A stretch of 64,000 nucleotides of DNA from Nitrospirota bacterium. GTDB lineage: Bacteria; Nitrospirota; Thermodesulfovibrionia; Thermodesulfovibrionales; JdFR-86. The notes under the pieces were generated by a model. It saw only the letters and a list, made by a program, of their open reading frames with translations. It was not told the DNA's origin and made no database searches. The position numbers and the translations under genes were made by a program. Below, in pieces: positions 2,262 to 19,617 of the stretch. Location: assembly GCA_963721805.1 (NCBI GenBank), contig CAVRJY010000001.1, forward strand, positions 128,001-192,000, in the 5' to 3' direction. Numbering within the stretch: position 1 is the stretch's first letter; every line of letters starts with the position of its first letter.

Positions 2262-3389
2262 TCATCTAGTCCCGATACGGTAGATCTTTCCGGATGAATA
2301 ATCAGCAACGTATATCTCCCCGCGTTCGTCAAGCCCGAACGTGCTGATGGCCAGGTGTGACTCCAGGAGCACCGCCGAGCGCCACTCGCCGCCCTCCCGC
2401 CTGAGCCCGCGTATCCGGCCGGAGCAGAAATCCCCGAAGAGGTAGATCCCATCAAGCGCGGGGAAGTCCTTCCCCGTGTATGCATACCCGCCCGTGACCG
2501 AGCAGTCCCCGGCCGAGTGGTCGTATGTCGTCACGGGCATCACGAGCCCTGTGCGGTCGCATGCCGGAGCGCCGAAGCAGCTCGCGCCCTCCATTATGTT
2601 CCAGCCGTAATTCGCCCCGGCAGCGCTTTTGTTCGATGGCTGGTAGTCGATCTCCTCGTATGTGTCCTGACCGACGTCCGCGATATAGAGCGCATCGCGG
2701 TCGAATGAGTACCTCCACGGGTTTCTGAGCCCTATGGCCCAGACCTCCGTGCCGTATGGGTTTCCGGGCGGGATGCCGTAAGGTTTCTTCCCGCCCTCTG
2801 TGTCTATGCGCAGGAGCTTGCCCAGGAGCACGCGCGGGTTCTGGCCGTTTCTGTGCGGGTCGCCTCCAGAGCCCCCATCCCCGATGCCGATATAAAGGTA
2901 TCCGTCCGGGCCGAAGACGATCTGCCCCCCGTTGTGGTTGCGGTATGGCTTGGCCTGGGTGAAGATCACCTCGCCGCTCGCCGGGTCCGCAAGGTTCAGA
3001 TCGCTGGCCGAGACTCTGTATCTAGCCACCACTACCGCGCCGTCCGAGGCGCGCGTATAGTCCACGTAGAAATACCGCTTCGACGCATACGAGGGAGGAA
3101 ACGCCAGCCCGAGCAGGCCCTGCTCAGCCCCCCGCGTCGCGATCAGCCCGGATACGTCCAAGAATGGGATAGGCCGCACCATGCCGTCTTTTATTATGTG
3201 CACCGTGCCCTTGCGCCCGACCACGAACAGCCGCCCGGAACCATCCCGCGCCGACTGTATATCGGTCGGAGAGCTAAGGCCGCTGGCATAGAGCGATATC
3301 TTTATCCCCGGCCAGCCCGCGCCCCACGCAAGCGCTCCGGATGCAAGCACCGCAACGATCGCGACGGCCCAAACGATGACCTTCTTCAT
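2262..3389 (-). CDS. Secreted PQQ-dependent sugar dehydrogenase (GSDH beta-propeller)
   Basis: Signal peptide; EQGLLGLAFPP, NHNGGQIVFGPDGYLYIGIGDGG, GLRNPWR motifs. Confidence 0.9.
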   Translation of the reverse strand: MKKVIVWAVAIVAVLASGALAWGAGWPGIKISLYASGLSSPTDIQSARDGSGRLFVVGRKGTVHIIKDGMVRPIPFLDVSGLIATRGAEQGLLGLAFPPSYASKRYFYVDYTRASDGAVVVARYRVSASDLNLADPASGEVIFTQAKPYRNHNGGQIVFGPDGYLYIGIGDGGSGGDPHRNGQNPRVLLGKLLRIDTEGGKKPYGIPPGNPYGTEVWAIGLRNPWRYSFDRDALYIADVGQDTYEEIDYQPSNKSAAGANYGWNIMEGASCFGAPACDRTGLVMPVTTYDHSAGDCSVTGGYAYTGKDFPALDGIYLFGDFCSGRIRGLRREGGEWRSAVLLESHLAISTFGLDERGEIYVADYSSGKIYRIGTR

Positions 3390-3504
3390 CGCCCATTATA
3401 GGCCTCTTTGTGTCGAACGGCAAATACGATTTTTTAAAAAGGGAAAGGCGCCCGTGGCGCCCCTCACGCGCTAAGCCTTTGCCGGAGCCGATCCGCAGAG
3501 GGGC

Positions 3505-3558
3505 GGAACTGGCTCCTGGGAACTGGTTCCTAGGAACCAGTTCCTGGGAACCGGTTCC
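3505..3558. promoter_or_regulatory. Array of four 12-bp palindromes GGAAC-N2-GTTCC at 14-bp period (putative operator or packaging site)
   Basis: Units at 3505 (GGAACTGGCTCC, one mismatch), 3519, 3533, 3547; 3519-3544 is a perfect 26-bp palindrome. Function inferred only from position upstream of phage-like cluster. Confidence 0.6.
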
Positions 3559-3823
3559 CATGGACGCGTTCCGGCATGCCGTTTTAAGCTCGGTGCAGGA
3601 TGAAACGCGATAAGTCGATAGAGCTCACCCCCCGAAAGGCGGCGGCCCTTTTTCCGGTCACGGATGGGCAGCGCCCACCGGCCCGTTCATGGGCCGCCGC
3701 CCCCTCCCCGCAGGGCGAGGGCAATCAGGGGTTCGCCGCCCACCGTTGCTGCATTGAGCCGTCACTGGTCTGTCTCCCCCTTGCGGGCGACCCGATCTGC
3801 GACGCCTGTCTGGAGGGGACACT

Positions 3824-4220
3824 ATGATCCGCCTTCGCCGCATAGCCATGACCGATGATGTTTCGCTGGGTGTCCTGATCGGCGAGGCCGGCCTCCCGCT
3901 CGCGCTCACATTAGAGAGGCCCTGGCGCAACAACGCCCCTGAGGTCTCGTGCATACCGCCGGGCAGCTACACGGCCCGCCGCGTGACATCGCCGAAGTTC
4001 GGCGAGACGTTCGAGGTTACAGGCGTTCCGGGCCGCAGCCACATCCTCATGCACAAGGGCAACACCCCGGCCGATACCGAGGGATGCATATTGGTAGGGG
4101 CCCAGTGGGGCACGATAGCGGGTTGCCCGGCGGTGCTTGATGAGCAGCCAGGGCTACGGTGCGTTCATGACAGCGATGAGGGACAAACAGGAGTTTCAGC
4201 TCCTGATCGAAAACCAGTAA
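3824..4220 (+). pseudogene. DUF5675-like phage protein (putative cell-wall peptidase) with apparent +1 frameshift near 4137
   Basis: TLERPW, SCIPPGSY, VPGRSHILMHKGN, TEGCILVG motifs; family-like C-terminus (MSSQGYGAFMTAMRDKQEFQLLIENQ*) lies in the +1 frame ending TAA 4218-4220; as sequenced the ORF runs to 4234. Confidence 0.65.
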
Positions 4221-4253
4221 GGAGATGCATATGAAACAGGCAGGGACGCTCAT

Positions 4254-4562
4254 ATGATGGACGCAGAGACGTTGAGGCACGTGGCCGAGTGGGGCCCGGG
4301 GCTCCTGATCGGCGTGATGATACTGGCCGGGCTTTTCAGGCTCGCAGACCGCGTCGGGATGAGGATGGTCGCGGCCTCCGAGAGGCAGGCCGAGGCGCTT
4401 GCGGCGCAGGCCGAGGCGATGCAGGGCCTGACGACCTCGATCAGGGACTTCGTTACGCGGGACAACTCCGAGCACCGCGAGATGCTCGTGCTTTTGAGGT
4501 TCATCGCGCAGGAGCAGCAGCACTCACGCGAGCAGCAGGAGGAGGAGAAAGTTGAACACTGA
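4254..4562 (+). CDS. Small phage membrane protein (one TM helix plus coiled coil; holin/Mu gp25-like position)
   Basis: Hydrophobic segment GLLIGVMILAGLF followed by Ala/Glu/Gln-rich heptads; position between lysin-like gene and gp26-like gene. Confidence 0.6.
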   Translation: MMDAETLRHVAEWGPGLLIGVMILAGLFRLADRVGMRMVAASERQAEALAAQAEAMQGLTTSIRDFVTRDNSEHREMLVLLRFIAQEQQHSREQQEEEKVEH

Positions 4563-4848
4563 GACCGCACGCAACAGGCGCATCCGCCACGCCCTGCTTC
4601 GGATACTGAAGTCCGAGTACCCCGGGGCGATAGACACCAAGGCACTGAGGTTCGCGCTCGACAACCTCGGCTATCCCATGCCGGGCCGGGTGCTCGGGGC
4701 GCACTTGGCGTACCTCAGCGAGGGCGGCTACGTCCGCGTCGAGCAGAAGGCGGGTTTCGGGTACAGGATCGAGTTTGCGTACCTGACCAAGGAGGGCTGG
4801 GACCTCCTCGACGGCCATATCGGCGAGCGCGGGGTGGACTCCGAATGA
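4552..4848 (+). CDS. Mu gp26-like winged-helix protein
   Basis: RIRHALLRIL...LAYLSEGGYV...LTKEGWDLLDG pattern and synteny before terminase; TTG start after GGAGGAG. Confidence 0.7.
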   Translation: MNTETARNRRIRHALLRILKSEYPGAIDTKALRFALDNLGYPMPGRVLGAHLAYLSEGGYVRVEQKAGFGYRIEFAYLTKEGWDLLDGHIGERGVDSE

Positions 4849-5093
4849 GCCTCCCGAGCGAGGAAAGCATGGTGCGGGCCCTCATGAGGCAAAAACGCGC
4901 TTATGAGCTGCACTTCAAGACCAAGTCGCCCGAGATCGACAACACGGCCAATACCGCGTACGTCGCGCTGATTAAGATGATCGTCGATATCGTGCGCAAA
5001 TCCAACGAGGCCGGCCCTGAAGGCCGCGACCCCGGCGAGGCCCGCCGCAGCGTGGACGAGGTCTTGAGGACCGAGTATGGGATCGAGCGATAA
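4845..5093 (+). CDS. Short (82 aa) protein in terminase small subunit position
   Basis: ATGA-coupled to gp26-like gene and overlaps terL start; helical, ends EVLRTEYGIER like Mu-type small terminase C-termini; no obvious N-terminal HTH. Confidence 0.55.
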   Translation: MSLPSEESMVRALMRQKRAYELHFKTKSPEIDNTANTAYVALIKMIVDIVRKSNEAGPEGRDPGEARRSVDEVLRTEYGIER

Positions 5094-6345
5094 GTTGATA
5101 CTCCTGCCCTACCAGCGCCGATGGGTCAACGACCGCTCCGCGATGAAGATATGGCTCGCCGCGCGCCAGATCGGCAAGTCCTTCGCCGTGGCGATGGAGG
5201 CCGTGGACGAGGCGCGCGCGGAGAAGTGCGACAACCTCATACTCTCGTCTTCCGAGCGGCAGAGCAAGGAGGTCATGAAGAAGGTCTCCTCGCACCTCCG
5301 CGTGCTGAATGTCTTAAGCGCCGACTCGCTCGACGCCAGCCGCGAAAACCGCGAGGAGGTCGAGCTCCTAAACGGCTCGCGCATCATCTCGCTTCCGGCC
5401 TCGCCGGATACGGTGCGCGGGTTTTCAGGCAACGTCTATCTGGACGAGTTCGCTTTTCATCAGGATTCGCGCGAGATATGGCGCGCGATGTACCCGACCG
5501 TGACGCGCGGCTACAAGGTGCGCATCACCTCGACCCCCAATGGCCGCCTCAATATGTTTTATGAGCTGTATAACGCGGATGCGCGGTTTTCGCGCCACCG
5601 CACGAACATACACGACGCCGTGGCCGACGGCCTGTGCGTCGATATTCCGCTTCTAAGAGACGGGATCGGAGACCCCCAGAGCTGGGCGCAGGAGTTCGAG
5701 TGTGAGTTCGTGGACGAGGCCACCGCGCTCATTACGCTCGATGAGATCGCCTCGTGTGAAGGGGACTGCGGGCAGCTAAAAGATACGACAGGTGAGCTAT
5801 ATCTGGGCGTCGATATCGGCCGCAGCCACGACCTTACGGTCATATGGATTTTAGAGCGCGTGGGCGACGTCCTCTGGACGCGCGGGGTGCGCGAGCTGCG
5901 CAATGCCTCATTCAGCTCTCAGCGCGAGACGCTGTTTTCGCTGATCGAATCCCCAGCCGTGAAGCGCTGTTGCATGGACTCCACCGGCATCGGGGCGCAG
6001 TTAAGCGAGGAGGCCCGCGAGCGGTTCGGCACGCGGGTAGAGCCTGTGCAGTTTACGCTCCAAAGCAAGGAGGACCTCGCCGTGACCGCGCGCCGGGCGT
6101 TTGAGGACCGCACCGTGCGCATCCCCCAGGACGCCACGATCCGGCGCGACATACACAGCGTCCGGAGGTATACGACCTCGGCCGGAAACGCCCGGTTCGA
6201 CGCCAGCCGCACGACGGAGCACGCCGACCGCTTCTGGGCGCTGGCCCTCGCGCTTCACGCCGCAAAGTCCCCGGCCTTGACTCAGCCCCAATACGAGCAG
6301 ATAAGCACGCGGCAGGCTGCTATGCACCGTGCTGGCTGCTGGTAA
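5077..6345 (+). CDS. Terminase large subunit (Mu gp28-like)
   Basis: LLPYQ Q motif, ARQIGKS Walker A, VYLDE Walker B, TSTPNG, nuclease motifs LGVDIG, MDSTGIG, HADRFWALALA. Confidence 0.95.
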   Translation: MGSSDKLILLPYQRRWVNDRSAMKIWLAARQIGKSFAVAMEAVDEARAEKCDNLILSSSERQSKEVMKKVSSHLRVLNVLSADSLDASRENREEVELLNGSRIISLPASPDTVRGFSGNVYLDEFAFHQDSREIWRAMYPTVTRGYKVRITSTPNGRLNMFYELYNADARFSRHRTNIHDAVADGLCVDIPLLRDGIGDPQSWAQEFECEFVDEATALITLDEIASCEGDCGQLKDTTGELYLGVDIGRSHDLTVIWILERVGDVLWTRGVRELRNASFSSQRETLFSLIESPAVKRCCMDSTGIGAQLSEEARERFGTRVEPVQFTLQSKEDLAVTARRAFEDRTVRIPQDATIRRDIHSVRRYTTSAGNARFDASRTTEHADRFWALALALHAAKSPALTQPQYEQISTRQAAMHRAGCW

Positions 6346-6424
6346 ATGCCGATGCAAATCATCGCTTCGCTCGATTTGCATCGGGGCTATAAGGCAAATC
6401 ACATCAGGATAAGGAGGTATTAAG

Positions 6425-7645
6425 ATGGCTGTTAAAGATTCATCAGGAAAGGGCCGGTCCGGCCCCCCGCCATTGGGCGGGGTGGTGGTGGCCCCGCATT
6501 TGGGCTGGCCGACGTACCCCTCGTCCGGGCTCACGCCCGAGCGCTTAAGCGCGATATTCCGCGAGGCCGACGCCGGGGACATCTCACGCCAGATCGAGCT
6601 TTACGAGGAGATGGAGGAAAAGGACGCGCATCTTGGCGCGGTGCTCCAGACTCGCAAGCTCGCTGTGGCCGGGCTTCAGTGGGAGGTCACCCCATCAGGC
6701 ACGAGCGAGGATGCGGCTATCTCAGCCGCACTCGTTAAGGACGCGCTTGCGCATGCTGCCGGGTTTGACGAGGCGATCCTCGCTCTAGTCGACGCCGTGG
6801 GCAAGGGTTTCTCTGCGGTCGAGCTTATCTGGCGAGCGGATGCTGGCCGCGTTGCGCTCAATGCGCTTCGGCCGGTAAGCCAGCGGAGTTTTTCCTTTCT
6901 CGCACCCGATGGCCTGCCCTCTGGCGAGCCGCGCCTTTTGACCGAGGCCAACCCGGTTCGCGGCGAGGCGCTCACGCCCTTTAAGTTCGCGGTTCACGCC
7001 AACATGTCCCGCACCTCATGCCCCCAGCGCGCCGGGGTGCTCAGGCCGTGCGCATGGATGTACCTGTTTAAAAATTACACGCTCAAGGACTGGCTGATCT
7101 TCAACGAGCGGTACGCGATGCCGATGCGCATTGGCAAGTTCGGCCCGTCCGCGTCCGAGGCCGACCGCCGCGTGCTCAGAAACGCGGTCTTCAACTTGGG
7201 CGCGGACGCCGCGGCCGTGATAAGCGAGGGCACGGTGATCGAGCTCCTGGAGAGCCCCGGCAAGGGCGGCTCGGCCGACCTCTACCAGAGGCTCGCCGAG
7301 TACTGCGACGCCGCGATCTCGAAGGCCGTCCTGGGCCAGACGCTAACGACCGAACAGACCGGCGGGACGTACGCCACCGCGCGAGTCCACGAGGGCGTGC
7401 GCGAGGACATCACCGCGGCCGACGCCCGCGCGCTCGAGCGCACGATAACGAGCCAGATCATCAGGCCGCTCGTGGAGTTCAACCTCGGCCCCGGCGCGCC
7501 GCTTCCCCGCTTCAGGTTCCTTATGGCGGAGGAAGAAGACCTAAAGACGCTGGCCGAGACCTACTCGACCTTAAGCGCGATGGGGGTCTCGATCCCTGAC
7601 GCCCACATCCGCGAGCGCTTCGGCATACCCGCAGGAGGCAACTAG
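6425..7645 (+). CDS. Portal protein (Mu gp29 / DUF935)
   Basis: GLTPERL, EMEEKDAHL, ERYAMPMRIGK, ISKAVLGQTLTT motifs; RBS TAAGGAGG. Confidence 0.92.
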   Translation: MAVKDSSGKGRSGPPPLGGVVVAPHLGWPTYPSSGLTPERLSAIFREADAGDISRQIELYEEMEEKDAHLGAVLQTRKLAVAGLQWEVTPSGTSEDAAISAALVKDALAHAAGFDEAILALVDAVGKGFSAVELIWRADAGRVALNALRPVSQRSFSFLAPDGLPSGEPRLLTEANPVRGEALTPFKFAVHANMSRTSCPQRAGVLRPCAWMYLFKNYTLKDWLIFNERYAMPMRIGKFGPSASEADRRVLRNAVFNLGADAAAVISEGTVIELLESPGKGGSADLYQRLAEYCDAAISKAVLGQTLTTEQTGGTYATARVHEGVREDITAADARALERTITSQIIRPLVEFNLGPGAPLPRFRFLMAEEEDLKTLAETYSTLSAMGVSIPDAHIRERFGIPAGGN

Positions 7646-7647
7646 AC

Positions 7648-8610
7648 ATGGACGAAACACTGGTAATGCGCTCTGCCGCGATCGAGGGCGCTCCGGCCGA
7701 GATCCAGGTGATCCCGTTTGGCGGCCACGAGACCACGCAGGGCAGCTTCGTGCTCGACGCCGAGGGGATCAGGCAGATCATCTCAGAGTTCGAGGCGAGA
7801 AAAAACGAGATGGTGATCGACTACGAGCACCAGACGCTCGGGGGCTCCGAGGCCCCGGCCGCCGGATGGATCAAGCGGCTTATAGATAAGGGTGCGGACG
7901 GCCTCTGGGCCTCGGTGCAGTGGACCCCGCGCGCGCTTCAGTACCTAAGGGGCCGCGAGTACCGCTACCTCTCGCCGGTGTTCATGAAGCGCATCGCTGA
8001 CGGCCGCGCGGTGCGCCTGATCAACGCCGCGCTCACAAACCAGCCAGCCATAGACGGCATGGTGCCGGTCGTAAACCGCGCCGCCGTGAACTCGCAAAAG
8101 GAAGGAGGAGGAAAGAAGATGGAAAAGATCATGGAAGCCCTCGGCCTTGATAAGGCTGCAGGGGAGGCGGAGGTCATCGCCGCAATAGGGGCGATGAAGT
8201 CACGCATCACGTCCGTGCTCGACTCTCTCGGGGTCGGGACGGACGCGACGGACCCGGAGCTTTCGGGCACCGTGGCCGCGATGAGACAGGCTTACGAGCA
8301 GCTGCCCGCGATAGCCGCGCGCCTGGCCGAGCTCGAGGCCGCGCTTGGCGGCAAAGAGTCCGCCGGGCTCGTCGAGCAGGCGATGGCCGAAGGCAAGCTC
8401 ACGCCCGCGCAGAAGGCGTGGGCCACGGACTATGCGGCCCGCGACACCGAAGGGTTCCGCGTATTCGTGGCCAAGGCCCCGGTGGTCGTCCCGGTGGCCG
8501 ACGCCCCGAGAGCCGGAGCAAGGAAGGTTCAGGCATTGGACGAGACCCAGCAAAGGGTAAACGCTCATCTCGGCATATCGGCCGAGGCATTCGGCCTTTA
8601 CGGCAAATAG
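7648..8610 (+). CDS. Mu-like prohead protease I (with nested scaffold)
   Basis: VIDYEHQT, APAAGWI, EYRYLSPVF, ALTNQPAIDGM motifs. Confidence 0.93.
   Translation: MDETLVMRSAAIEGAPAEIQVIPFGGHETTQGSFVLDAEGIRQIISEFEARKNEMVIDYEHQTLGGSEAPAAGWIKRLIDKGADGLWASVQWTPRALQYLRGREYRYLSPVFMKRIADGRAVRLINAALTNQPAIDGMVPVVNRAAVNSQKEGGGKKMEKIMEALGLDKAAGEAEVIAAIGAMKSRITSVLDSLGVGTDATDPELSGTVAAMRQAYEQLPAIAARLAELEAALGGKESAGLVEQAMAEGKLTPAQKAWATDYAARDTEGFRVFVAKAPVVVPVADAPRAGARKVQALDETQQRVNAHLGISAEAFGLYGK
8119..8610 (+). CDS. Scaffolding protein (Mu gpZ-like), internal in-frame start in protease gene
   Basis: Strong internal RBS AAGGAGGAGG (8102-8111) before in-frame ATG 8119; helical product with GKLTPAQKAWA; same nested arrangement is known for Mu I/Z. 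Confidence 0.7.
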   Translation: MEKIMEALGLDKAAGEAEVIAAIGAMKSRITSVLDSLGVGTDATDPELSGTVAAMRQAYEQLPAIAARLAELEAALGGKESAGLVEQAMAEGKLTPAQKAWATDYAARDTEGFRVFVAKAPVVVPVADAPRAGARKVQALDETQQRVNAHLGISAEAFGLYGK

Positions 8611-8622
8611 GAGGATCGGCAC

Positions 8623-9030
8623 ATGGCACTCACTTCAGACAGGAACACGCCTCGCCGTGACGGCGAGCTCGTAACTCTCCCGGTCGCGGCCGCAAAACTC
8701 ATCTACGCCGGGTCGCTGGTGGCCAGGGATTCAAGCGGCAACGCCACCCCGGGTGCGGCCGCAACCACGCTTTTGGGAGCCGGCCGCGCCGAGGCGCGTG
8801 CGGATAACTCCGGCGGCTCGGCCGGGGATATCACGGTCGACGTCCGCAAGGGCGTCTTCAGGTTCGGCAACTCCGCCTCCGCGGACGCGATCACGCGCGC
8901 GGACATCGGCGCCAGCTGCTACATCGCCGACGACCAGACGGTCGCCAAGACCAGCGGATCGAGCACGCGCTCGGTAGCCGGAACAGTCTTCGACGTGGAC
9001 TCAGACGGCGTCTGGGTCAAGTTCGAGTAA
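8623..9030 (+). CDS. Capsid decoration/cement-like protein
   Basis: MALTSDRNTPRRDG...ADIGASCYIADDQTV...DGVWV pattern; sits between protease and major capsid. Confidence 0.7.
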   Translation: MALTSDRNTPRRDGELVTLPVAAAKLIYAGSLVARDSSGNATPGAAATTLLGAGRAEARADNSGGSAGDITVDVRKGVFRFGNSASADAITRADIGASCYIADDQTVAKTSGSSTRSVAGTVFDVDSDGVWVKFE

Positions 9031-9043
9031 GGAAAGGACAGAT

Positions 9044-9922
9044 ATGATAATCAACCAGTCAGCGCTTCAGGCCCTGTACAAGGGCTTCAGGACGATATTC
9101 AACGAGTCGTTCGACGCGGTAAAGCCGCAGTACGAGGGCGTGGCGATGGTCGTGCCCTCGACCGTGCGCGAGGAGACCTACGCATGGCTCGGCGCGTTCC
9201 CGTCGATGAGGGAATGGATCGGCGAGCGGCAGGTCAGGAACCTCGACCTGCAGAGCTACAGCATCCGCAACAAGGACTGGGAGGTCACGATCGAGGTCGA
9301 CCGCAACGACCTCGAGGACGACTCGGTAGGCATCTACCGCCCGATCATAGCCGAGCTCGGCCGCTCGGCCGCGATGCACCCCGACGCGCTCGTATTCGGG
9401 TTAATGGGCACCGGGTTTTCCACCGCGTGCTACGACGGGCAGTACTTCTTCGACTCCGCCCACCCGGTAGGCTCCGCCACGGTGAGCAACACCGGCGGGG
9501 GCTCGGGCTCGGCCTGGTATCTGCTCGATACGACGCGCTCTCTGAAGCCTTTCATCTTCCAGTCGAGGCGCGACGTGGAGTTCGTCTCGAAGGACCGGCC
9601 GGACGACGAGCAGGTCTTCATGCGCAAGAAGTACGTCTATGGCGTCGACAGGCGCGACAACGCCGGGTTCGGGCTCTGGCAGCTGGCGTACGGATCGAAG
9701 CAGACGCTGGACGCGGCGAGCTACTCGGCCGCACGCGCCGCGATGATGGCGTACACGGACAGCGAGGGCAAGCCGCTCGGGATCACGCCCAGCGTGCTCG
9801 TCGTGCCGCCTTCTTTGGAGGGCGCTGCGCGCGCGATCGTGACGGCCGAGCGCGACGCCTCGGGCGAGACGAACCCCTGGTTCAATACCGCCGGGCTCCT
9901 CGTGAGCCCGTGGCTTGGGTAG
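9044..9922 (+). CDS. Mu-like major head subunit gpT
   Basis: YAWLGAFPSMREWIGER, DGQYFFDSAHPV, WYLLDTTRSLKPFIFQ, GFGLWQLAYGS motifs. Confidence 0.95.
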   Translation: MIINQSALQALYKGFRTIFNESFDAVKPQYEGVAMVVPSTVREETYAWLGAFPSMREWIGERQVRNLDLQSYSIRNKDWEVTIEVDRNDLEDDSVGIYRPIIAELGRSAAMHPDALVFGLMGTGFSTACYDGQYFFDSAHPVGSATVSNTGGGSGSAWYLLDTTRSLKPFIFQSRRDVEFVSKDRPDDEQVFMRKKYVYGVDRRDNAGFGLWQLAYGSKQTLDAASYSAARAAMMAYTDSEGKPLGITPSVLVVPPSLEGAARAIVTAERDASGETNPWFNTAGLLVSPWLG

Positions 9923-9928
9923 ACCCCG

Positions 9929-10360
9929 ATGCCCTACAGCACCCTTGATGAGATCGTAAAGCTCCTGCCTGAGGCAACGCTTATCGAGCTTACGGACGAC
10001 ACGGGCGCCGGTACGGTCGACGGGGCGGTCGTCGCCGAGGCCATAGCCCAGGCCGACGCGGAGATCGACTCTTACTGTGGGGGGCGCTACGGCGTCCCCC
10101 TCAGCCCCGTCCCCGAGATCGCAAAAAAGCTCTCGGCGGACATCGCGCTCTATCACCTGTATTCGCGCCGCGTGGCCCAGATGCCGGAGGCCCGCAAGGA
10201 CCGCTACAAAGACGCGGTGCGCCTGCTTGAGGGCATCGCCAAAGGCGCGGTCACGCTGGGCGCCGATACGCCCGCTTCATCGGGGCAGCCGGGCACGGCC
10301 GAGACGAACAGGCCGGACGACGAAAACACATTCACCCGCGACTCGATGCTCGGGTTCTAA
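9929..10360 (+). CDS. Head-tail connector (Mu gp36 / DUF1320)
   Basis: MPYST, ADAEIDSYCGGRY, DIALYHLY, RYKDAVRLLEGIAKG. Confidence 0.9.
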   Translation: MPYSTLDEIVKLLPEATLIELTDDTGAGTVDGAVVAEAIAQADAEIDSYCGGRYGVPLSPVPEIAKKLSADIALYHLYSRRVAQMPEARKDRYKDAVRLLEGIAKGAVTLGADTPASSGQPGTAETNRPDDENTFTRDSMLGF

Positions 10361-10419
10361 GAAAGAAGGAGACGCTCACAATGCCTGTAAACGACGCATA
10401 TAAGGCCGGGGCATAGCGC

Positions 10420-12924: not shown

Positions 12925-12940
12925 CGAGGAGAGACAAGAA

Positions 12941-13984
12941 ATGGGCATAAGCGCATCAGGGACCGAGCTTCGGGCGGCGGCCGCGAGGGCCGCGATATGG
13001 GGCACGGCGGTTCAGTGCGGCGCGGCGGACGGGGTGCTCGTCCTTCCGTCGGAGATCAAGAAGACCCGCGAGGCCCTCGCGGAGGACTCGCTCGGCACGC
13101 TGTTTTCGAATTCGTCGGACGCAGGTGCGGTAAAGGTCGAGGGCGAGCTCAAGGCCTACCTGCGCTACGACGGGCTGGACCTCCTGCTGGCGCTCGCGAT
13201 GGGCGCAACCGGAGGGGCTCCGGTGCGGCAGGGGACGAGCGCGGCCTACGGCCAGACGCTTAAGTTAAACGGCTCGCTCGACGGCCTGTTTGCCACGCTC
13301 GCGATCAACAACGGCGTGAACGTCGACGAGTTTGCGTCGGTGAAGCTCAGCGGGTTTCAGATCAAGGGCGAGGCCGGAAAGCCTGTCGAGGCCACGTTCA
13401 GCCTGATCGCGAACGACCGCACGACCGGCTCGACCGTCAACACCACAGCGACGTTCAGCGCGGTCACGGATTTTGAGACATCAAACCGCACCCTGTTCAG
13501 CCAGGCCGTGTTCCGTTGCAACGCCCGCTTTGGCGCGGCGCTCGCCGATACCGACAGGATATACCCCTCGGCCTTCACGCTTAAGTTCGTCAGAAAGCTC
13601 CTTGGCGTGCGCACGCTGGGCTCGGGAGCGGATACGGTCGACGAGCCTTCAAACGACGGCCTGCCGGACTGCACGCTATCGCTGACGTTCCCGCGCTACA
13701 CCGGGGCCACGCACTTCGCGGACTGGGACGCGGCCGCGCCCAAGAAGCTCGACCTCGCGTTTACGGGCGCGGTGATCGAGGGCTCATACCGGCGCGCGCT
13801 GAGGTTTTCGTTCCCGAACCTCGCGTACAAGGGCGTCGAGCTCCCGATCAGGCGCGGCCTGCTCGAGCACCCGGTCGAATTTATATGCCTCGGCACGGAG
13901 CTGGCCTCCTCCGGGATGGACGGGATCATGGAGCCCTTCGGGCTTGAGCTCGTAAACCGCCAAAGCGCGGACGTGCTCGGATAG
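12941..13984 (+). CDS. Tail tube (major tail) protein, non-contractile type
   Basis: ATG 12941 after GAGGAG; beta-rich 347-aa protein after gp37 slot and before chaperones; no sheath gene in cluster. Confidence 0.7.
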   Translation: MGISASGTELRAAAARAAIWGTAVQCGAADGVLVLPSEIKKTREALAEDSLGTLFSNSSDAGAVKVEGELKAYLRYDGLDLLLALAMGATGGAPVRQGTSAAYGQTLKLNGSLDGLFATLAINNGVNVDEFASVKLSGFQIKGEAGKPVEATFSLIANDRTTGSTVNTTATFSAVTDFETSNRTLFSQAVFRCNARFGAALADTDRIYPSAFTLKFVRKLLGVRTLGSGADTVDEPSNDGLPDCTLSLTFPRYTGATHFADWDAAAPKKLDLAFTGAVIEGSYRRALRFSFPNLAYKGVELPIRRGLLEHPVEFICLGTELASSGMDGIMEPFGLELVNRQSADVLG

Positions 13985-13988
13985 GGCG

Positions 13989-14405
13989 ATGGATATCGAG
14001 GCCCTGGAGAGCGACGACTATGCGGTGTGGGTAAGGTTCATGGACGCCGAGGTGCTCGTGCGCCACGTCCCGGCCGGCGAGCTCCTGTCTATCCGGGAGC
14101 GCAGCCTGAGGCGGGCGTGGGACATCTCGAGCGGGGGCCGGCCGGCCGAGGGCATCGATGCGGCCGAGGCTGCCAGGCTGCTGGGCCGGGCGGCGGTGCG
14201 CGGCTGGCGCGGCCTGAGCATGCGCGGCGAGGACTACCCCTACTCGCCCGAGCGGTGCGACTTCCTTATGGCGCGCTGGGCCGAGTTCGGGCGGTTCGTA
14301 AACGAGGCCGCGACGAGCCTTGCGCGCCTCGCTGAAGCACAGCGGAGGGACGAGTCAAAAAACTCCTCTCTCACATCCGGGCCCGGCTCGACTTCCCGGG
14401 TGTGA
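13989..14405 (+). CDS. Tail assembly chaperone (lambda G-like)
   Basis: VRGWRGL...YPYSPE...ESKN motif; follows tube gene; contains A AAA AAC slippery site. Confidence 0.8.
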   Translation: MDIEALESDDYAVWVRFMDAEVLVRHVPAGELLSIRERSLRRAWDISSGGRPAEGIDAAEAARLLGRAAVRGWRGLSMRGEDYPYSPERCDFLMARWAEFGRFVNEAATSLARLAEAQRRDESKNSSLTSGPGSTSRV

Positions 14406-14644
14406 GCTGCGCTTCATGCCGGGAGATAGAGGCATTGGATCAGGTCAGGCCGGACTGCGAGAGCGGCGGCTGCCCGATCCCTCGGGCAACGGGGCGCGGC
14501 ATGCGGGCGGTCGCCCTCAGGTCGATGATAAGGCGGCTTAAGCGGATAGTCCCTGCGGGCGAGGTGCTCCGCCTGATGGGCGCGACGGCGCGTGACCTCG
14601 AGTTGCTGGCCCTGATCGAGGACGAGATAGGAGGCAGGGGATGA
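14357..14644 (+). CDS. Frameshift extension of tail chaperone (lambda GT-like), Cys-rich
   Basis: -1 slip at A AAA AAC (14357-14363) enters open frame KKLLSHIRARLDFPGVSCASCRE...DCESGGCP, identical to ORF 14402-14644. Confidence 0.8.
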   Translation, partial: KKLLSHIRARLDFPGVSCASCREIEALDQVRPDCESGGCPIPRATGRGMRAVALRSMIRRLKRIVPAGEVLRLMGATARDLELLALIEDEIGGRG

Positions 14645-15048
14645 TAAACATCGAAAGCGACATGGACAAGCTCGCGGCCGCGATCGGCACCGGCGCGTTG
14701 GGCGCGATAGTCGAGAGTGTGACCGAAGAGGCAAAGGCGCTCGCCCCTGGCCGCAGCGGCACCCTTAGGGACTCGATAGAGGGATTCATAACCGGCGCTG
14801 GGTCGGGCTCGATAGACGCGGCTGCGCCCTATGCCTCGTTCGTGCACGACGGCACAGGGCTTTACGGGCCGTCCGGTGCGGCATATGCCGTAAGCGCGCG
14901 CATTAAAAAGGCCCTGTGCTGGCCGGGTGCGAGCCACCCCGTGCGCACGGTGACCGTGCGCGGCATCGAGGGCAGGGAGTTCATCACCCGGGCGCTCGAG
15001 GGCCCGGCACCGGATCAGGCAGTGCAAGGGCTGATCGACAGACTATAG
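14641..15048 (+). CDS. HK97 gp10-like neck/tail completion protein
   Basis: APGRSGTLRDSI, YASFVHDGTG, KKALCW, GIEGREFITRAL motifs. Confidence 0.8.
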   Translation: MINIESDMDKLAAAIGTGALGAIVESVTEEAKALAPGRSGTLRDSIEGFITGAGSGSIDAAAPYASFVHDGTGLYGPSGAAYAVSARIKKALCWPGASHPVRTVTVRGIEGREFITRALEGPAPDQAVQGLIDRL

Positions 15049-15061
15049 AGGAGGCAACCAG

Positions 15062-15595
15062 ATGGCTGAAGTGGTTATAAACATCAAGGCCGAGGACGCC
15101 GCGACCCCGGTGATCGAGGCGATCTCGGCGACGCTCGACGCGCTCGGCGCCGGGCTCGCGGCGATGGACAGCGGGCTTAGCAAGACCCTCACGCTCGACG
15201 TCTCGGGCGCGCTTTACGGTGCGGCCGAGGTAGCCTCGGCCATCGGCGCGATACCGGACGTGACCGAGAAGAGCGTGGTCATCGAGTACCAGACGATGGC
15301 CTCTCCGGTGAGGCCGTTTACCGAGGGCATCGCGTACATAAAGGACAAGATGGACTCGCTCCCGACCGAGGGCTCATACACCGTGAAGTATGCGACCGAT
15401 GGCTCACCGGCGCAGGGGCAACCGAATGTGCCGGCGCAGCCGGGGCCGGTCACGTTCTCGCCGGTGATCAACGTCAACGCCCAGGCGGGCGGGGCTGCCG
15501 CGGATGCCGCCTCGTTGGCGCGCTCGCTCGATGAGGAGCTTGCGCGGATGTGGCGGACCAACCGCTCGGAACTTAGGAGGGCAGCCACCCTATGA
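15062..15595 (+). CDS. Very short tape measure-like protein (177 aa)
   Basis: TMP-type N-terminus (VVINIKAEDAATPVI) and C-terminus (VTFSPVINVNA...LARSLDEELARM); syntenic slot; strong RBS. Confidence 0.7.
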   Translation: MAEVVINIKAEDAATPVIEAISATLDALGAGLAAMDSGLSKTLTLDVSGALYGAAEVASAIGAIPDVTEKSVVIEYQTMASPVRPFTEGIAYIKDKMDSLPTEGSYTVKYATDGSPAQGQPNVPAQPGPVTFSPVINVNAQAGGAAADAASLARSLDEELARMWRTNRSELRRAATL

Positions 15596-16332
15596 GCGCG
15601 ATAATCACGGCATGGCAAAACCTGCTCGAAAGCTCAACCGTTACGCTTACGGCCGGCGCGGAGGACCCGGACTACCCGCTATACCGCCTCTGCGACCGCA
15701 ATACCGGGCGCGCGTTTCGCTCAAGCGCAGCCGGAACGCTCGAGATCTCGATAGACCAGGGCGCATCGGGCGCGATGGCCGCAGACCGCCTCCTGATCCC
15801 CTCCGGCCACAACCTTGGCGGTATGACGCTCGACCTGCTCCACTCAGGCGACGGTGTCGCATATATCTCCGCCACGCCGCAGTGGACCGGCGCTGACGGA
15901 GTTATCGAGATGTCATGGGCGCCGCTCACCGCGCGGTACTGGAAGTTCAGGGTCACAGCGCCATCGGTGGCGCCCTCGCTGGGCGAACTGTTCCTGAGCA
16001 GCTCGTACGAGTGGGAGCGCCAGCCAGCGCGGCCCTCCGGCGCGATGGACACGGAGTTTAACGCGCTAAGCGATACGACCTCCTCGGGCGAGGACAGATT
16101 CCTGGTGATGGGCCAGCCCAAGAGGCGGCGCACCTACCGGGTGCCGCGCTGCGGCGCGGCGATGCGCGATGAGATCGAGGCGCTCTATGGCGCATGGGCC
16201 GGGGCATATCCGTTTTGGATGCGGGACCACGAGGGCTCCTGGATATTCGGGCGGATCGTCTCGCCGCCCCAGATAGCGGAGCAGGGGCCCGGAGCATGGG
16301 GCTTCTCGCTCGACTTCAGGGAGGTCTTATGA
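15592..16332 (+). CDS. Distal tail (Dit)-like protein
   Basis: ATGA-coupled to TMP-like gene; beta-rich N-domain (RYWKFRV) and C-terminal GAYPFW...FSLDFREV. Confidence 0.6.
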   Translation: MSAIITAWQNLLESSTVTLTAGAEDPDYPLYRLCDRNTGRAFRSSAAGTLEISIDQGASGAMAADRLLIPSGHNLGGMTLDLLHSGDGVAYISATPQWTGADGVIEMSWAPLTARYWKFRVTAPSVAPSLGELFLSSSYEWERQPARPSGAMDTEFNALSDTTSSGEDRFLVMGQPKRRRTYRVPRCGAAMRDEIEALYGAWAGAYPFWMRDHEGSWIFGRIVSPPQIAEQGPGAWGFSLDFREVL

Positions 16333-16757
16333 ACGTGCTCTCCCGTGTCCGCCCGGTCTATCTCGTCAAGATTACCCTTCAGGGCTCCGGCCAGACGCTG
16401 TACCTCTCGGACCGGAACGTGACTGTGGGCGGGCAGGAGTACGAGGACTATATCTCCGCGGTCACGACCCCGGCCGAGGAGGCCAGGCGGCCAACCAGCG
16501 AATCTTTAAACGCGCCGCTTTCGATCGAGTTTCGAAACGAGCCCTGGCGCGGGTTCAGCCGGCTGATCGAGGCCGGGGCCGAGCACCCCTTTGAGGGCGG
16601 CCGCTGCACGCTCAGCGAGGCGTACATCGACGACGCGGGGATGTCGGGCGAACCCGTGGCGCTCTTTACCGGCACGCTCGACGCCCCCGCTGAGATCGAC
16701 TTGCGGGGTTTTAGTTGCGCGGTCTCCGCGCTCGATTATGCCGCTGACAACAGATAA
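16329..16757 (+). CDS. Baseplate hub N-terminal-like protein
   Basis: ATG 16329 coupled to previous stop; PVYLVKI...TLYLSDR...LFTG pattern. Confidence 0.55.
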   Translation: MNVLSRVRPVYLVKITLQGSGQTLYLSDRNVTVGGQEYEDYISAVTTPAEEARRPTSESLNAPLSIEFRNEPWRGFSRLIEAGAEHPFEGGRCTLSEAYIDDAGMSGEPVALFTGTLDAPAEIDLRGFSCAVSALDYAADNR

Positions 16758-16797
16758 GGGATAGGGGCCACAGGCCCCCAAGGAGGAGCAGGAAAAA

Positions 16798-17250
16798 ATG
16801 GGCATAGCATTTGACCACGTGCAGTACGTATCGGACGTCCGGCTGATGCTTGGCGAGTCGACCTCGACGATCACGCTGGCCGCCCCGTTTACGGACAAGG
16901 AGTTCTACCGCTCGGAGATCGACCCCGGATTCGGCGGGGAGATAAGCTTTATCGACGCGGACCTGTATTTCGACCACTACTCGAGCCTCACGCAGAACGT
17001 CACATGGCGCTGGCAGATCAGGGGCAAGGGCCAGGCCGCCTGGACCGACCTCAATACGCCAAAGACCGAGAGCTGGGCCAGCCAGGCCCAGTCGCGCCTC
17101 CGCGTGATCGTCGAGGCCTCCGCCCTTGACGTCAATACGGCCGTGCCGTTTGAGATCCGCATGCTCGCGACCGCGGCCACGGCGGCCACGGTCTATATCG
17201 TGATCGGGACGTATACGCCCTCCATCCGCGTGCTGGGTACGAGCGCATGA
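16798..17250 (+). CDS. Hypothetical beta-rich virion protein
   Basis: RBS AGGAGGAG/AGGA; host-like codon usage; ATGA-coupled to next gene. Confidence 0.65.
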   Translation: MGIAFDHVQYVSDVRLMLGESTSTITLAAPFTDKEFYRSEIDPGFGGEISFIDADLYFDHYSSLTQNVTWRWQIRGKGQAAWTDLNTPKTESWASQAQSRLRVIVEASALDVNTAVPFEIRMLATAATAATVYIVIGTYTPSIRVLGTSA

Positions 17251-19382
17251 TGCCCGCACCGCTTTCGCGCTCGCTGTATCCCGCGCTCGATCCGGCATCG
17301 GCCGGTGAATACCCGCCGGTCGGGTACGGGAGTGTCGACGGGGTCCCTGCGCCATGCATCGTATCGGGCGCGGCGATGCGGCTCGCCTCCGGGATCGGCG
17401 CGGCCGAGACCTCACTTGAGGTCGATGACGCCCCGGCGCTCCCCTCGCCGCCGTTTACGGTGCAACTGGCAGGGGAGCGGATGCTCGTGGCTTCGGTTAC
17501 GGGCAATACACTAGGCGGGCTCACCCGCGGGGCGGATGGCACGACGGCCTCGGCGCACCCGGCGGGGCGCAGGGTGTTTGAGCTGCGGCCGGAGTACGTA
17601 TATCTGATAAGCCCCGAGCCGATAGCCGCGATACGCGGCGTCGTGGTCGACGGCGTGGCGCAGCAGTCGGGCTTTAGCGCATACACGGGCCGCCCGGGCG
17701 ACGAGCACCCGGACTGGCCGGGCATGGCGGTGGTCGCGTTCGAGGCACAGCTCAGCGCGTCGGCCCAGCGCAATATCTCTGCCGCATCGACCTGCTCGGT
17801 GGACGCAACGATGCTTGAGGCCTCGCACCGCGAGCTCATGGCCTCTGGTGGCGCGGCCCCGGTTTTGATATCAGGGAAACGCGCTCGCCCGGCGTGGGTC
17901 GCATTTACAGGCTCGGGCCCGCTCACGTCTCAGGCGTACTGCGCGTCCGTCCATAATACCGGCGCGTCCGATGCGGTCGTGCGCGCGTTAGTCAAGGTCA
18001 GCGCGACTGACGAGGTACTCGCGACAGAGTGCGTGCTTGTCCAGGCATCCGCGGCGGTGGCGGTCGGGCTCTCGCACGACGGCGGGCCGTGGGAGACCTG
18101 CTTCATGCTGTTCGCTGGCGCTGGCGCATCCACACTGGAGATTAGCGGGATCAAGAAGACCGTTACGGCCGTAAACCCGGCCGAGGGCGACAAGAGCTCG
18201 TCGTATCTGCCTGCGCCTTCTATGCTGTCGTACCGCGGCCTCGGGATCGAACGCACCGCGACGCTCAAGCCCAAGGGCAAGCGGCTGGCATGGGCCGCGT
18301 ACAGCGCGGACTCATTCGGGCCGGTTCTCTGGCAGACCCACCGCGCCGCTGTAGCTAACACCGGCGCGACGGACTCCGTAGTGCGGCTGATCGCATCGGC
18401 CCCAACTGGCGAATGCGCGGCCATGGCCGACTTTACCGTGAGAGCCGGGGATGCCACCACGCTTGAACTCACGCACCCGGGCGGGGGCTGGGACACGATG
18501 AGCAGGGTTGCGGTGCAAAGCGGGATGCTTAGAGTAGATGCGCTCTCAAAGGAGGTCAGGTACGTCACCGGGACCGACGGCCCCTCGGCGGGGTATAGCT
18601 CCACAGCGCGCGCTGTCATAGGCGATGAGGTCACGGTCGACGCCGACTGGTGCTGCGACGAGACTGGCGCGGTGATCGAACGGCCCGACAAAATTATGCG
18701 CCACTTTTTGGTCGAGCGCATGGGGTTTGCGGATACGGACATCGACAGCGCCTCCTTCGCCGCGGCCGACGCGGCGTACGCGGGCTACGTAAGCGGGGGC
18801 TACCGCTTCGGGTTCGTGATAAACGATAAGGTCACGCCGTCCGGGTTCGTGCGCTCACTGGCCGCACAGTGCAGGTCTGTGCTCAGATATGCGCGCGGGC
18901 TCTGGCGGCTCGACGCGGTGCCATCCGCGGCCCCTGCGCCGGTGCGCACGATATCGGCGGGCGAGCTTGCCGGAGAGGGCGCGATGTTCCGGTTTAAGCG
19001 CGTGCCTCTTGAGGATATGGGCAACAGCCTTCGTGCATATTACGGCGCTGTCTACTCAAAGGGCGGCGGCTGGTCGTCCATAGCCTCGGTCAATGACGCG
19101 GGCTCGATAGAAAGGCTCGGTCTAATCACGAGAGAGTTCAGGTTCCCGGCGATACGCGATAAGTCCACCGCAGAGGACGTGCTCGGCCTCATGCTCCTTG
19201 AGCGTGCGGCCTCGCTCCTGATCGTCAATTTCACGGTATTCTACGAACACTTCGACCTGAATGTCGGCGATACGATCTCGATAGACAACGAGCTTTATAA
19301 CGGCGCGCTGTTCTTCATCGAACGCATCGAAAGGCCGGACTCATTCAGGGCGAAAATTACAGCTCGCCAGTGGTGGGGATGA
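17247..19382 (+). CDS. Large baseplate hub/tail tip protein
   Basis: 711 aa; PVGYGSV early motif, IERPDKIMRHFL...IDSASF, FDLNVGDTISI C-terminus typical of phage tail tip proteins. Confidence 0.7.
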   Translation: MMPAPLSRSLYPALDPASAGEYPPVGYGSVDGVPAPCIVSGAAMRLASGIGAAETSLEVDDAPALPSPPFTVQLAGERMLVASVTGNTLGGLTRGADGTTASAHPAGRRVFELRPEYVYLISPEPIAAIRGVVVDGVAQQSGFSAYTGRPGDEHPDWPGMAVVAFEAQLSASAQRNISAASTCSVDATMLEASHRELMASGGAAPVLISGKRARPAWVAFTGSGPLTSQAYCASVHNTGASDAVVRALVKVSATDEVLATECVLVQASAAVAVGLSHDGGPWETCFMLFAGAGASTLEISGIKKTVTAVNPAEGDKSSSYLPAPSMLSYRGLGIERTATLKPKGKRLAWAAYSADSFGPVLWQTHRAAVANTGATDSVVRLIASAPTGECAAMADFTVRAGDATTLELTHPGGGWDTMSRVAVQSGMLRVDALSKEVRYVTGTDGPSAGYSSTARAVIGDEVTVDADWCCDETGAVIERPDKIMRHFLVERMGFADTDIDSASFAAADAAYAGYVSGGYRFGFVINDKVTPSGFVRSLAAQCRSVLRYARGLWRLDAVPSAAPAPVRTISAGELAGEGAMFRFKRVPLEDMGNSLRAYYGAVYSKGGGWSSIASVNDAGSIERLGLITREFRFPAIRDKSTAEDVLGLMLLERAASLLIVNFTVFYEHFDLNVGDTISIDNELYNGALFFIERIERPDSFRAKITARQWWG

Positions 19383-19443
19383 GGGGCCGGGTGGCCCCAT
19401 TCCCCATTCGCGGGGCAAGCGGCCCCGCTCACTTTCAATTAAT

Positions 19444-19602
19444 GCCGTTGACCGTTCGCACGATTATGCATCAGAAATTTAAAGCGCGAGAAATCGTGTC
19501 AGACTAGGAACCGGGTGAAAAACGACCGGAGGCGTATATGGACATACGTCGAGGATCGTTTTTCGGACGGTGACAACGTATCACGCGAGTTTCGCGCGCT
19601 TT
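19444..19602 (-). repeat. Palindromic intergenic repeat, copy B
   Basis: Reverse complement reads AAAGCGCGCGAAACTCGCGTGATACGTTGTCACCGTCCGAAAAACGATCCTCGACGTATGTCCATATACG...CTAGTCTGA...GCGCTTT...GGTCAACGGC; closest to copy E. Confidence 0.88.
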
Positions 19603-19617
19603 GAAGAGGATTACAGG

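Follow-up and report, generated by a model that had tools for sequence, protein, structure and literature searches.

A candidate domesticated particle operon of Mu ancestry, resembling a gene transfer agent in its architecture, in a Thermodesulfovibrionales bacterium

A stretch of 64,000 nucleotides from a Nitrospirota bacterium of the order Thermodesulfovibrionales (assembly GCA_963721805.1, contig CAVRJY010000001.1, positions 128,001 to 192,000; hereafter the window, whose coordinates are used unless another contig or locus is named) carries a compact operon of phage particle and lysis genes. Judged from its genes alone, this operon appears to be a domesticated, Mu-derived particle system that resembles a gene transfer agent (GTA) in architecture. 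The explanation favoured here, with a probability of about 55%, is that it represents the late half of a Mu-like transposable siphovirus, kept in the chromosome in non-mobile form from a time before the family split into its genera, and working in a GTA-like manner. The genome that holds the window (G000, in which the window is C1:128001-192000) comprises 2.78 Mb in 9 contigs and is 94% complete. In the following, G numbers denote genomes and L numbers loci, f1 is the family of the window (11 genomes including G000) and f4 is another family of the order; the lineage is known here only from metagenome-assembled genomes (MAGs).

A Mu-type particle operon and the loss of transposition genes

The operon occupies positions 3600-19382 and comprises 21 open reading frames (ORFs), all on the forward strand; 98.4% of it is coding and 10 of the 20 junctions between ORFs overlap. 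A preliminary description of the sequence had proposed such a tightly coupled one-strand cluster, which is borne out, and had let it begin at 3824; the start is now placed at 3600, where a small conserved Cys-rich ORF comes first. The host dehydrogenase gene and rng named there as flanks were also recovered, with further host genes on both sides: hisI, aat and a glucose/sorbosone-dehydrogenase (GSDH)-family gene lie to the left, rng (RNase G) and a radical-SAM gene to the right. The whole operon sits within a 1.55-Mb contig.

Gene functions were assigned by Pfam and PHROG profile searches, which agreed with the earlier calls of terminase, portal, protease/scaffold, decoration protein, capsid, connector, tube and chaperones. 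The large terminase TerL (5077..6345; 422 aa, Terminase_6N and Terminase_6C) has Walker A/B and nuclease motifs that are invariant across 4 orthologues, in line with the impression that essential motifs were intact. It is followed by a Mu-type portal of 406 aa (6425..7645; Portal_Mu, Pfam, E 6e-111) without the ~140-aa C-terminal extension seen in the portal of phage RC1, by a head maturation protease/scaffold of the Mu gpI type (7648..8610; Mu-like_Pro, Pfam/PHROG) and by the head structural protein previously called decoration (8623..9030; phrog_1731, PHROG), which is 52% identical to a virion structural protein of RC1. The major capsid protein of the Mu gpT type (9044..9922; Mu-like_gpT, Pfam, E 2e-125) shows 68-78% identity over the six family copies compared (five sister genera), and a head-tail adaptor of the gp36 type comes next (9929..10360; Pfam/PHROG). 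An ORF of 834 aa (10420..12924; Pfam and repeat analysis) then joins a fibre-like N-terminus to a gp37 domain. Its N-terminal ~690 aa contain 4.9 copies of an 84-nt (28-aa) tandem repeat with the motif DYPQAADVRDGVSYD and have a fibre-like look, and the gp37 tail-terminator/neck domain (residues 694-828) is fused to them in frame. In sister genera gp37 is a separate gene of ~145 aa, preceded by one or two small ORFs, one of them with a discoidin domain; no start codon in the 834-aa ORF aligns with the gp37 start of the relatives. Mu F (gp30) was not found in the cluster by Pfam/PHROG profiles or by tblastn with RC1 proteins.

The Mu ancestry proposed in the preliminary description is supported, as the same TerL type stands downstream of MuA or MuB in other phyla and occurs within elements that carry MuB, Gam and GemA in the same order. 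In its capsid the element shares 50-54% identity with the transposable siphoviruses RC1, Rhodovulum RS1 and the Pseudomonas D3112/B3/JBD25-like phages. A MuA or MuB homologue precedes TerL of this type by 8-10 kb in a cyanobacterium, Thermus, a betaproteobacterial MAG, Xanthobacter and a member of the Desulfarculia. Among MAGs of the same order, the elements L080 and L075 encode a MuB-like ATPase, Gam, GemA and Mor; L078 has a repressor, Gam and Mor without A/B, L079 a repressor and Mor, and in L081, L085, L082 and L077 host genes stand directly ahead of the lysis genes. A TerL tree unites the four f4 elements with full reduction in a single clade (100/100), whose sister clade holds the MuB-bearing elements; the f1 elements branch at the base without resolution. 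One genome, G013, holds both an element of the MuB/Gam/GemA/Mor type and a reduced copy. The order seems to hold a full series from a complete Mu-like prophage to a stripped particle operon, which could show a stepwise change from phage to host tool.

The surroundings of these elements have features of their own. L085, L082 and L077, all from f4, share the same host context of cytochrome c, a 4Fe-4S protein and NrfD, followed by a divergent GerE/LuxR regulator, and in L085 a response-regulator gene lies directly ahead of the endolysin; these reduced elements thus seem to occupy a conserved locus and may have host-type regulators. Host-like genes also lie between Mor and the lysis genes of L078 (4748-7480; a multihaem cytochrome, DUF2844 and DUF3443) and of L079 (2549-6558; DUF3443, a response regulator and a histidine kinase).

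The selfish transposition genes have been lost family-wide. The domain Mu-transpos_C (PF09299), which the RC1 transposase carries together with HTH_Tnp_Mu_1 and rve, was found in none of the 11 family genomes (completeness 68-100%), using a profile that recognised three of four positive controls (phage RC1, a Desulfarculia prophage and an f4 genome; the Thermus genome G252 was negative). PF02914 (DDE_2) was discarded as a probe for Mu transposases and replaced by PF09299, as it matched nothing anywhere, phage RC1 included. When the 44 annotated RC1 proteins (of 56 features) were compared with G000 by tblastn, the portal, protease, head protein, capsid and gp36 matched, all within the cluster, together with four HU-like DNA-binding matches elsewhere; homologues of RC1 MuA or MuB were not detected in G000 by this search. 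These results support the loss of the selfish genes proposed in the preliminary description. The rve matches in G000 consist of 10 copies of an insertion sequence (IS) with a 357-aa frame and one 193-aa frame, and no integrase lies in or beside the cluster. G000 has a single Terminase_6N locus, the one in this cluster, and neither TerL_ATPase nor HK97 capsid families were detected in this 94%-complete genome, so that no helper prophage is visible.

Inheritance and selection across the family

Related genomes carry the same cluster throughout the family. The portal occurs with 56-62% identity in 9 of the 10 other f1 genomes, almost all of them from separate genera; counting all relatives, 20 of 61 have it. 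TerL is present in 8 of these 10 genomes, in 9 of 12 f4 genomes and in 27 of 251 genomes in total; its frequency in the 11 other families ranges from 0 to 18% (4/22, 2/21, 1/38, 1/38 and 1/20, and zero in the other six). Colinearity extends over the whole cluster in G005, G004, G002, G003, G006 and G001.

The host lineage has passed the cluster on vertically over a long time, and purifying selection has acted on it. In 28 pairwise genome comparisons, identity amounts to 56-75% for the concatenated cluster proteins and to 57-72% for the host RNase G and radical-SAM proteins, with a correlation of r = 0.80. A cluster tree of 8 taxa is congruent with the host-gene tree and recovers both of its well-supported inner branches, namely the split {G000,G002,G003,G006}|{G001,G004,G005,G009} with support 95/99 and the clade {G001,G004,G009} with support 85/94; an arbitrary wrong clade was rejected in the approximately unbiased test (p-AU 0.006). 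Selection was assessed from the proportions of nonsynonymous (pN) and synonymous (pS) differences instead of dN/dS, because dS was saturated. Between G000 and G005, pS reaches 0.68-0.84 (saturated) and pN only 0.16-0.40, which for head and tail genes alike matches the pN values of 0.18 and 0.28 obtained for the two host genes.

The host-like composition stated in the preliminary description stands in part. At 65.3% guanine plus cytosine (GC) the operon exceeds all 1325 windows of the same size in G000 (mean 60.4, sd 3.0) and is the GC-richest 15.8 kb of the genome. Across the family, the GC contents of cluster and host loci rise together over a range of 43 to 67% (r = 0.93, n = 8), so that the excess in G000 represents a small offset on a strongly ameliorated composition.

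Tail and lysis genes, regulatory switch and boundaries

The tail module begins with a tail tube (12941..13984; Phage_tube_2), whose start is now set at 12941, an ATG with a ribosome-binding site. The tail assembly chaperone pair g13/g14 of the G/GT type (13989..14644) contains the programmed -1 frameshift site A_AAA_AAC at 14357-14363. This heptamer lies in frame 45 nt ahead of the chaperone stop, gives access to a 93-codon -1 frame and is kept in frame in 7 of 7 elements despite GC contents of 43-67%; the subtle recoding signal mentioned in the preliminary description is thus real. The next gene, g15 (14641..15048), encodes a tail completion protein of the HK97-gp10-like/Neck1 type, which follows the chaperones instead of occupying the Mu G position. 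The baseplate genes are directly preceded by g16 (15062..15595; 177 aa), and g17 (15592..16332), a baseplate or distal-tail candidate with discoidin-like (F5/8 type C) features, is found in 11 of 11 family genomes, in G007 only as a 46-aa piece. The start of g18 (16329..16757), which corresponds to the N-terminal part of a hub, was moved to 16329, where an ATGA overlaps with g17; in G005 and G001 g18 is fused to the g20 homologue, and the 150-aa ORF g19 (16798..17250) is not at this position in these two genomes. The operon ends with g20 (17247..19382), a central tail fibre/hub of 711 aa with Phage-tail_3 at its C-terminus; its C-terminal 240 aa share 46-50% identity with those of relatives, and its middle varies.

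The four ORFs between the completion protein and the fibre/hub belong to no family, and one of them, g16, is the sole candidate for a tape measure, which would be a short one. No canonical tape measure was found in the place where the preliminary description had listed one. The g16 homologue of L081 directly follows the chaperones, and the C-terminal domain of g16 is common to coiled-coil, weakly tape-measure-like ORFs of G004, a genome with a 634-aa tape measure (phrog_3779, E 2e-10); that of phage RC1 has 1231 aa. AlphaFold2 models from 3-sequence alignments were too poor for fold searches, both for g16 (mean predicted local distance difference test score, pLDDT, 35) and for the lysis protein g1 (51). 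The ESM Atlas returned only unnamed viral clusters for g16, with a weak lead to Tape_meas_lam_C at 0.85, and viral clusters with discoidin domains, again as a lead only, for g17. A profile search with g16, g17 and g20 against all PDB chain sequences gave nothing below E 0.08 and no phage or GTA protein among the matches listed; the PDB includes the solved structures of RcGTA, the GTA of Rhodobacter capsulatus. G004 has three coiled-coil ORFs (L026 1048-2067, 15840-16784 and 17597-19501), two of which are weakly tape-measure-like besides the 634-aa one; one is located at the left edge of the element, ahead of Mor, and two end in the g16 C-terminal domain.

Variants without a tube were observed at L033 and L083 (G001) and at L037 (G010). 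In G001, gp36 is directly followed by the g17 homologue; gp37, tube, chaperones, g15 and g16 are absent and the remaining genes are intact. Such a cluster could be a short-tailed form or a product of decay. The term "complete", which had been applied to the particle operon, is in any case too strong: a canonical tape measure, Mu F and a small terminase (TerS) are missing, and at least one sister genus is without the tube.

Lysis genes form the left end of the operon. The first small ORF, g0 (3600..3827), has a Cys-rich C-terminal part of ~25 residues, kept just upstream of the lysin gene in 7 family genomes, that resembles a zinc ribbon and may be one. The endolysin slot is occupied by the DUF5675 protein g1 (3824..4234; Pfam), for which sister genera have Peptidase_M15_4 in its place; the MuB/Gam/GemA-bearing relative L080 has DUF5675 in the same slot. 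Among lysins, DUF5675 has been placed with the C82 peptidases on structural grounds in a 2026 preprint. The adjoining g2 (4254..4562), a conserved 102-aa protein with a hydrophobic segment, is probably holin-like, to judge by its position. Conserved upstream of TerL, g3 (4552..4848; phrog_436) has a winged-helix look and a weak hint of HTH_34 (E 0.2) and is a possible DNA-recognition protein or small-terminase partner; the 82-aa ORF g4 (4845..5093), which overlaps the TerL start and is conserved in relatives, is a candidate small terminase by position only. Profile searches and tblastn with RC1 proteins recognised no small terminase in the cluster, including the gp27 type. The TerL genes of G004 (L026 5376-6926) and G002 contain in-frame low-complexity insertions that are not in other orthologues, and CCCTCCC...GGGAGGG palindromes occur in an intergenic region near the G004 TerL gene (L026 ~3740-3840); this may be a small GC-rich palindromic element capable of entering coding sequences.

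Concerning regulation, the preliminary description had reported neither a repressor nor Mor and had drawn a parallel with RcGTA, which is under host control. The former holds for the window but not for the genome, and host control of the present operon is not supported: the element keeps a phage-type CI/Cro/Mor switch of its own, which in G000 is unlinked from the operon. This module lies at C1:321456-322836, ~174 kb from the operon end and between host genes. It comprises Mor (C1:321456-321845), an adjoining Cro-like gene of 64 aa (HTH_3) and, divergent from both, a CI-like repressor of 215 aa with HTH_3 and Peptidase_S24 domains. Identity of the CI-like repressor with the host LexA was rejected; canonical LexA is encoded elsewhere in G000, so that the repressor is the phage's own. 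Members of the Mor family were found in 9 of the 11 family genomes, and the repressors of the three-gene module are 56-71% identical to the G000 or G005 copy. The module is contiguous with the operon in G005 (repressor, Mor, endolysin onward) and in G008 (repressor, Cro, a 167-aa ORF, Mor, the small Cys-rich ORF, DUF5675), and stands alone between host genes in G000, G001, G003 and G006. All regulators that were found are thus phage-derived and, in these four genomes, unlinked from the operon. A Peptidase_S49 gene of ~320 aa, with the family assigned for the G003 copy only, adjoins the stand-alone switch in G003, G006 and G002 (L115 8443-9408, L116 8415-9389 and L118 71-973) and follows just after Mor in the first two. 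A gene for a chemoreceptor with a zinc-binding CZB domain adjoins the CI-like repressor both in G005 of f1 (L025 1160-1504) and in L078 of f4 (692-2665); coincidence, a cargo gene or a junction of old common origin could account for this.

Directly upstream of the operon lies an array of 3.9 copies of a 14-bp unit with GGAACNNGTTCC palindromes (3505..3558). An operator function of this array was rejected, as it is a solo copy of the terminal repeat of the ~10-copy IS that encodes the 357-aa rve transposase, and this repeat is present at ~20 sites. The IS terminal repeat consists of 2-4 GGAACNNGTTCC palindromes spaced 14 bp apart, with the other sites in G000 including C1:81057, C1:669665 and C2:113650; several of these arrays are not accompanied by a transposase gene and may represent solo ends or copies resembling miniature inverted-repeat transposable elements (MITEs). 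The IS end at 3505-3558 probably marks the rearrangement that parted the operon from its switch; the gene order of G008 is the one that G000 would show had Mor and the operon been split at this point; ~40 nt ahead of the first ORF can still be aligned among G000, G008 and G006.

At the other end, between the last tail gene and rng and outside the operon, lies a copy of a dispersed structured repeat of ~180 nt (19422..19617), which has more than 130 blastn matches in G000 with 68-91% identity among copies; another copy is located just downstream of the unlinked Mor gene (C1:321029-321153). A search for flanking direct or inverted repeats detected nothing att-like, as the preliminary description had stated, and the right ends of the elements in G000, G005 and G001 have no common sequence. 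Scanning of 3300-19700 against Rfam returned no family, and a promoter and terminator scan gave nothing with bearing on the operon that exceeded shuffled sequences. The search of sequencing runs for the window stretch retrieved no RNA run and one DNA run with 0.27 of the sampled words.

Alternative readings and comparison with known systems

If the operon is a working GTA-like system, its activity might be envisaged as follows. Loss or cleavage of the S24 repressor, probably upon DNA damage, would permit the expression of Cro and Mor, and Mor would activate the single long operon in trans. The operon would then supply the terminase, the proteins of a Mu-type head and of a short non-contractile tail and, for lysis, the DUF5675 lysin with the holin-like protein. 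By a headful mechanism the terminase would fill the heads with the chromosomal DNA at hand, a proposal made because there is no transposase, no replication and no known prophage end bearing a pac site, and lysis would free the particles. The induction signal, the action of Mor on the operon, the short tail and the packaging and transfer of host DNA are all predictions from the gene set. An independently evolved GTA of the Thermodesulfovibrionales that arose from a Mu-like phage by deletion of its transposition module and is now owned by the host, characterised by an unlinked switch responsive to DNA damage, a shortened tape measure, some tube-less variants and headful packaging of host DNA, is a narrower proposal that is put forward tentatively. 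If it is true, transposable phages could be recurrent raw material for GTAs, and such agents would move genes among anaerobes, including genes of mercury methylation and of the sulfur cycle.

Several points weigh against a retained GTA-like system. Neither a particle, packaged DNA nor a transcript has been seen. A locus conserved across relatives, which the preliminary description had set as a check, was not observed: the chromosomal locus differs between genera. In an empty-site test, the pair of radical-SAM gene and rng is syntenic in 7 sister genomes and its neighbours differ in all of them. The neighbouring blocks of the sister genomes scatter over G000, and the differing loci are uninformative because synteny is scrambled throughout the family at this distance. 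Temperate phages that co-speciate with their hosts could also yield congruent trees and matching GC contents, and the host tree is made of two genes from 8 taxa with only two well-supported inner branches. The genera differ in gene content in a mosaic fashion: a different capsid gene occurs in G003, the 634-aa tape measure together with a canonically placed Mu G gene in G004, and extra tail-fibre genes in G005. The tube is present in 6 of 11 family genomes and missing from the contiguous cluster of the 99%-complete G001, G007 retains no more of g17 than the 46-aa piece, and second copies or fragments occur in G006 and G003. The missing tape measure, Mu F and small terminase and the exceptional GC content of the cluster count on the same side. 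The IS end, finally, lies at the expected position of a Mor-dependent promoter, and the G000 copy may be transcriptionally orphaned.

The alternative that survives best, unlikely though it appears, is a domesticated and selected system that is not a GTA, such as a PBSX-like killing particle with undelivered host DNA, a phage defence, a decoy or a cargo shell. The evidence for vertical inheritance and selection applies to it equally and is silent on DNA delivery. Such a function would fit a cluster whose tail genes vary most, with the tube not found in 5 of 11 genomes and the head genes and g17 kept; the available portion of the FpGTA paper (PMC12946183) raises the PBSX/tailocin alternative for new GTA-like elements as well. 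However, terminase and portal are intact, at 55-66% identity and with invariant catalytic motifs, which argues that DNA packaging itself is under selection, and the frameshifting chaperone and the baseplate are conserved wherever the tube is present.

Still less probable is an inert, slowly decaying Mu-like prophage that has lost its early region and is functionless in this genome. The unlinked switch, the IS end at the promoter position, the lack of tape measure, Mu F and TerS, the gene losses in G001, G003 and G007 and the graded reductions of f4 from MuB-bearing elements, by way of L078 (repressor, Gam and Mor without A/B) and L079 (repressor and Mor), would all be compatible with decay, and the G000 copy alone may have been silenced recently. 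Neutral decay, however, would have destroyed the reading frames over a distance at which pS to G005 is saturated, whereas 21 of 21 ORFs are open over 15.8 kb with pN at the housekeeping level; the slippery site is kept in 7 of 7 elements, and the element occurs in nearly all genera with a tree that matches that of the host. A module that is still mobile, being either mini-Mu- or satellite-like and served in trans by complete Mu-like phages or a prophage whose early genes were lost in assembly, is very improbable: the order does hold complete-looking relatives with MuB-like, Gam, GemA and Mor genes and the same TerL type, once beside a reduced copy (G013), the locus differs between genera and most relatives are fragmented MAGs, but the G000 operon is embedded in its 1.55-Mb contig with host genes on both sides, G005 likewise has host genes on both sides and G004 and G001 have host flanks on the resolved sides, there are no flanking repeats and no right end conserved among G000, G005 and G001, no transposase was detected with PF09299 in any of the 11 family genomes, recent movement is disfavoured by the congruent trees and by the tracking of host GC, and the differing loci are explained by generally scrambled synteny.

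With regard to known classes, the cluster shares with GTAs the possession of chromosomal particle genes without replication, integration or transposition genes of their own. It does not belong to the RcGTA-like family (Rhodogtaviriformidae), because its Pfam families are Mu-type, and it is not a Mu-like phage, because the DDE transposase and MuB that define such a phage are absent from the element; a Mu-type head module (portal, gpI, gpT, gp36 and gp37) and an activator of the Mor family are both present. Capsid-forming phage-inducible chromosomal islands (cf-PICIs) encode an integrase, a replication module and head genes and have no tail genes. The present cluster, with its tail tube, chaperones and baseplate and without an integrase in or beside it, is not of this kind.

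The transposable siphoviruses around RC1 resemble the operon not only in the capsid but also in the order lysis, terminase, portal, protease, head protein, capsid, gp36, gp37, tube and chaperones, in a late activator of the Mor type and in an S24 CI-like repressor. Unlike these phages, the system described here is devoid of transposase A, MuB, Gam and further early genes, and it has neither Mu F nor a TerS of the gp27 type. Its TerL is of a different and shorter type (422 versus 565 aa), its portal is without the C-terminal extension and its tape measure would measure at most 177 aa, compared with 1231 aa in RC1.

FpGTA I/II of Faecalibacterium prausnitzii (Nat Commun 2026), as presented in the consulted part of the paper (PMC12946183), are likewise split over distant loci, were recognised from structural-only operons and are near-ubiquitous in their genus. 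In contrast to the system of the window, they are podovirus-like, belong to Firmicutes, have been studied as experimental particles and package ~9 kb of DNA, and the same part of the paper does not describe them as Mu-like; the second locus is a regulatory switch here and not a set of structural genes. Dd1, a transducing particle of the sulfate reducer Desulfovibrio desulfuricans, shares with our system an anaerobic, sulfur-cycling host, which is of a different phylum. It is named among the known GTAs, with discussion of a putative TerS, in the accessible text of a review (PMC11841831), from which the RcGTA properties used below were also taken in part. No publication describing a GTA derived from a Mu-like phage, or one in Nitrospirota, was found in the literature outside supplements and subscription journals. 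Few GTAs are known, and only for a handful have the genes been identified. The locus offers a concrete and testable gene set with a plausible induction handle, the S24 repressor and Mor, in an uncultured, anaerobic and sulfur-cycling lineage of environmental importance. If its particles carry host DNA, they would provide a route of gene exchange in sediments and subsurface communities.

RcGTA has an HK97-type gene set with a structural operon of ~15 kb, further system genes at several loci and regulation by the host. The operon of the window resembles it in being a one-strand, head-to-tail structural operon of similar extent without replication or integration genes, in its vertical inheritance across a taxon, in the placement of further system genes at other loci, and in a siphovirus-type tail with a Phage-tail_3 central fibre protein. 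It differs from RcGTA in that its head and packaging genes are of the Mu type (Portal_Mu, Mu-like_Pro and Mu-like_gpT) and that its lysis genes lie within the operon. In place of the host regulators of RcGTA, control appears to be exerted by a retained phage CI/Cro/Mor switch.

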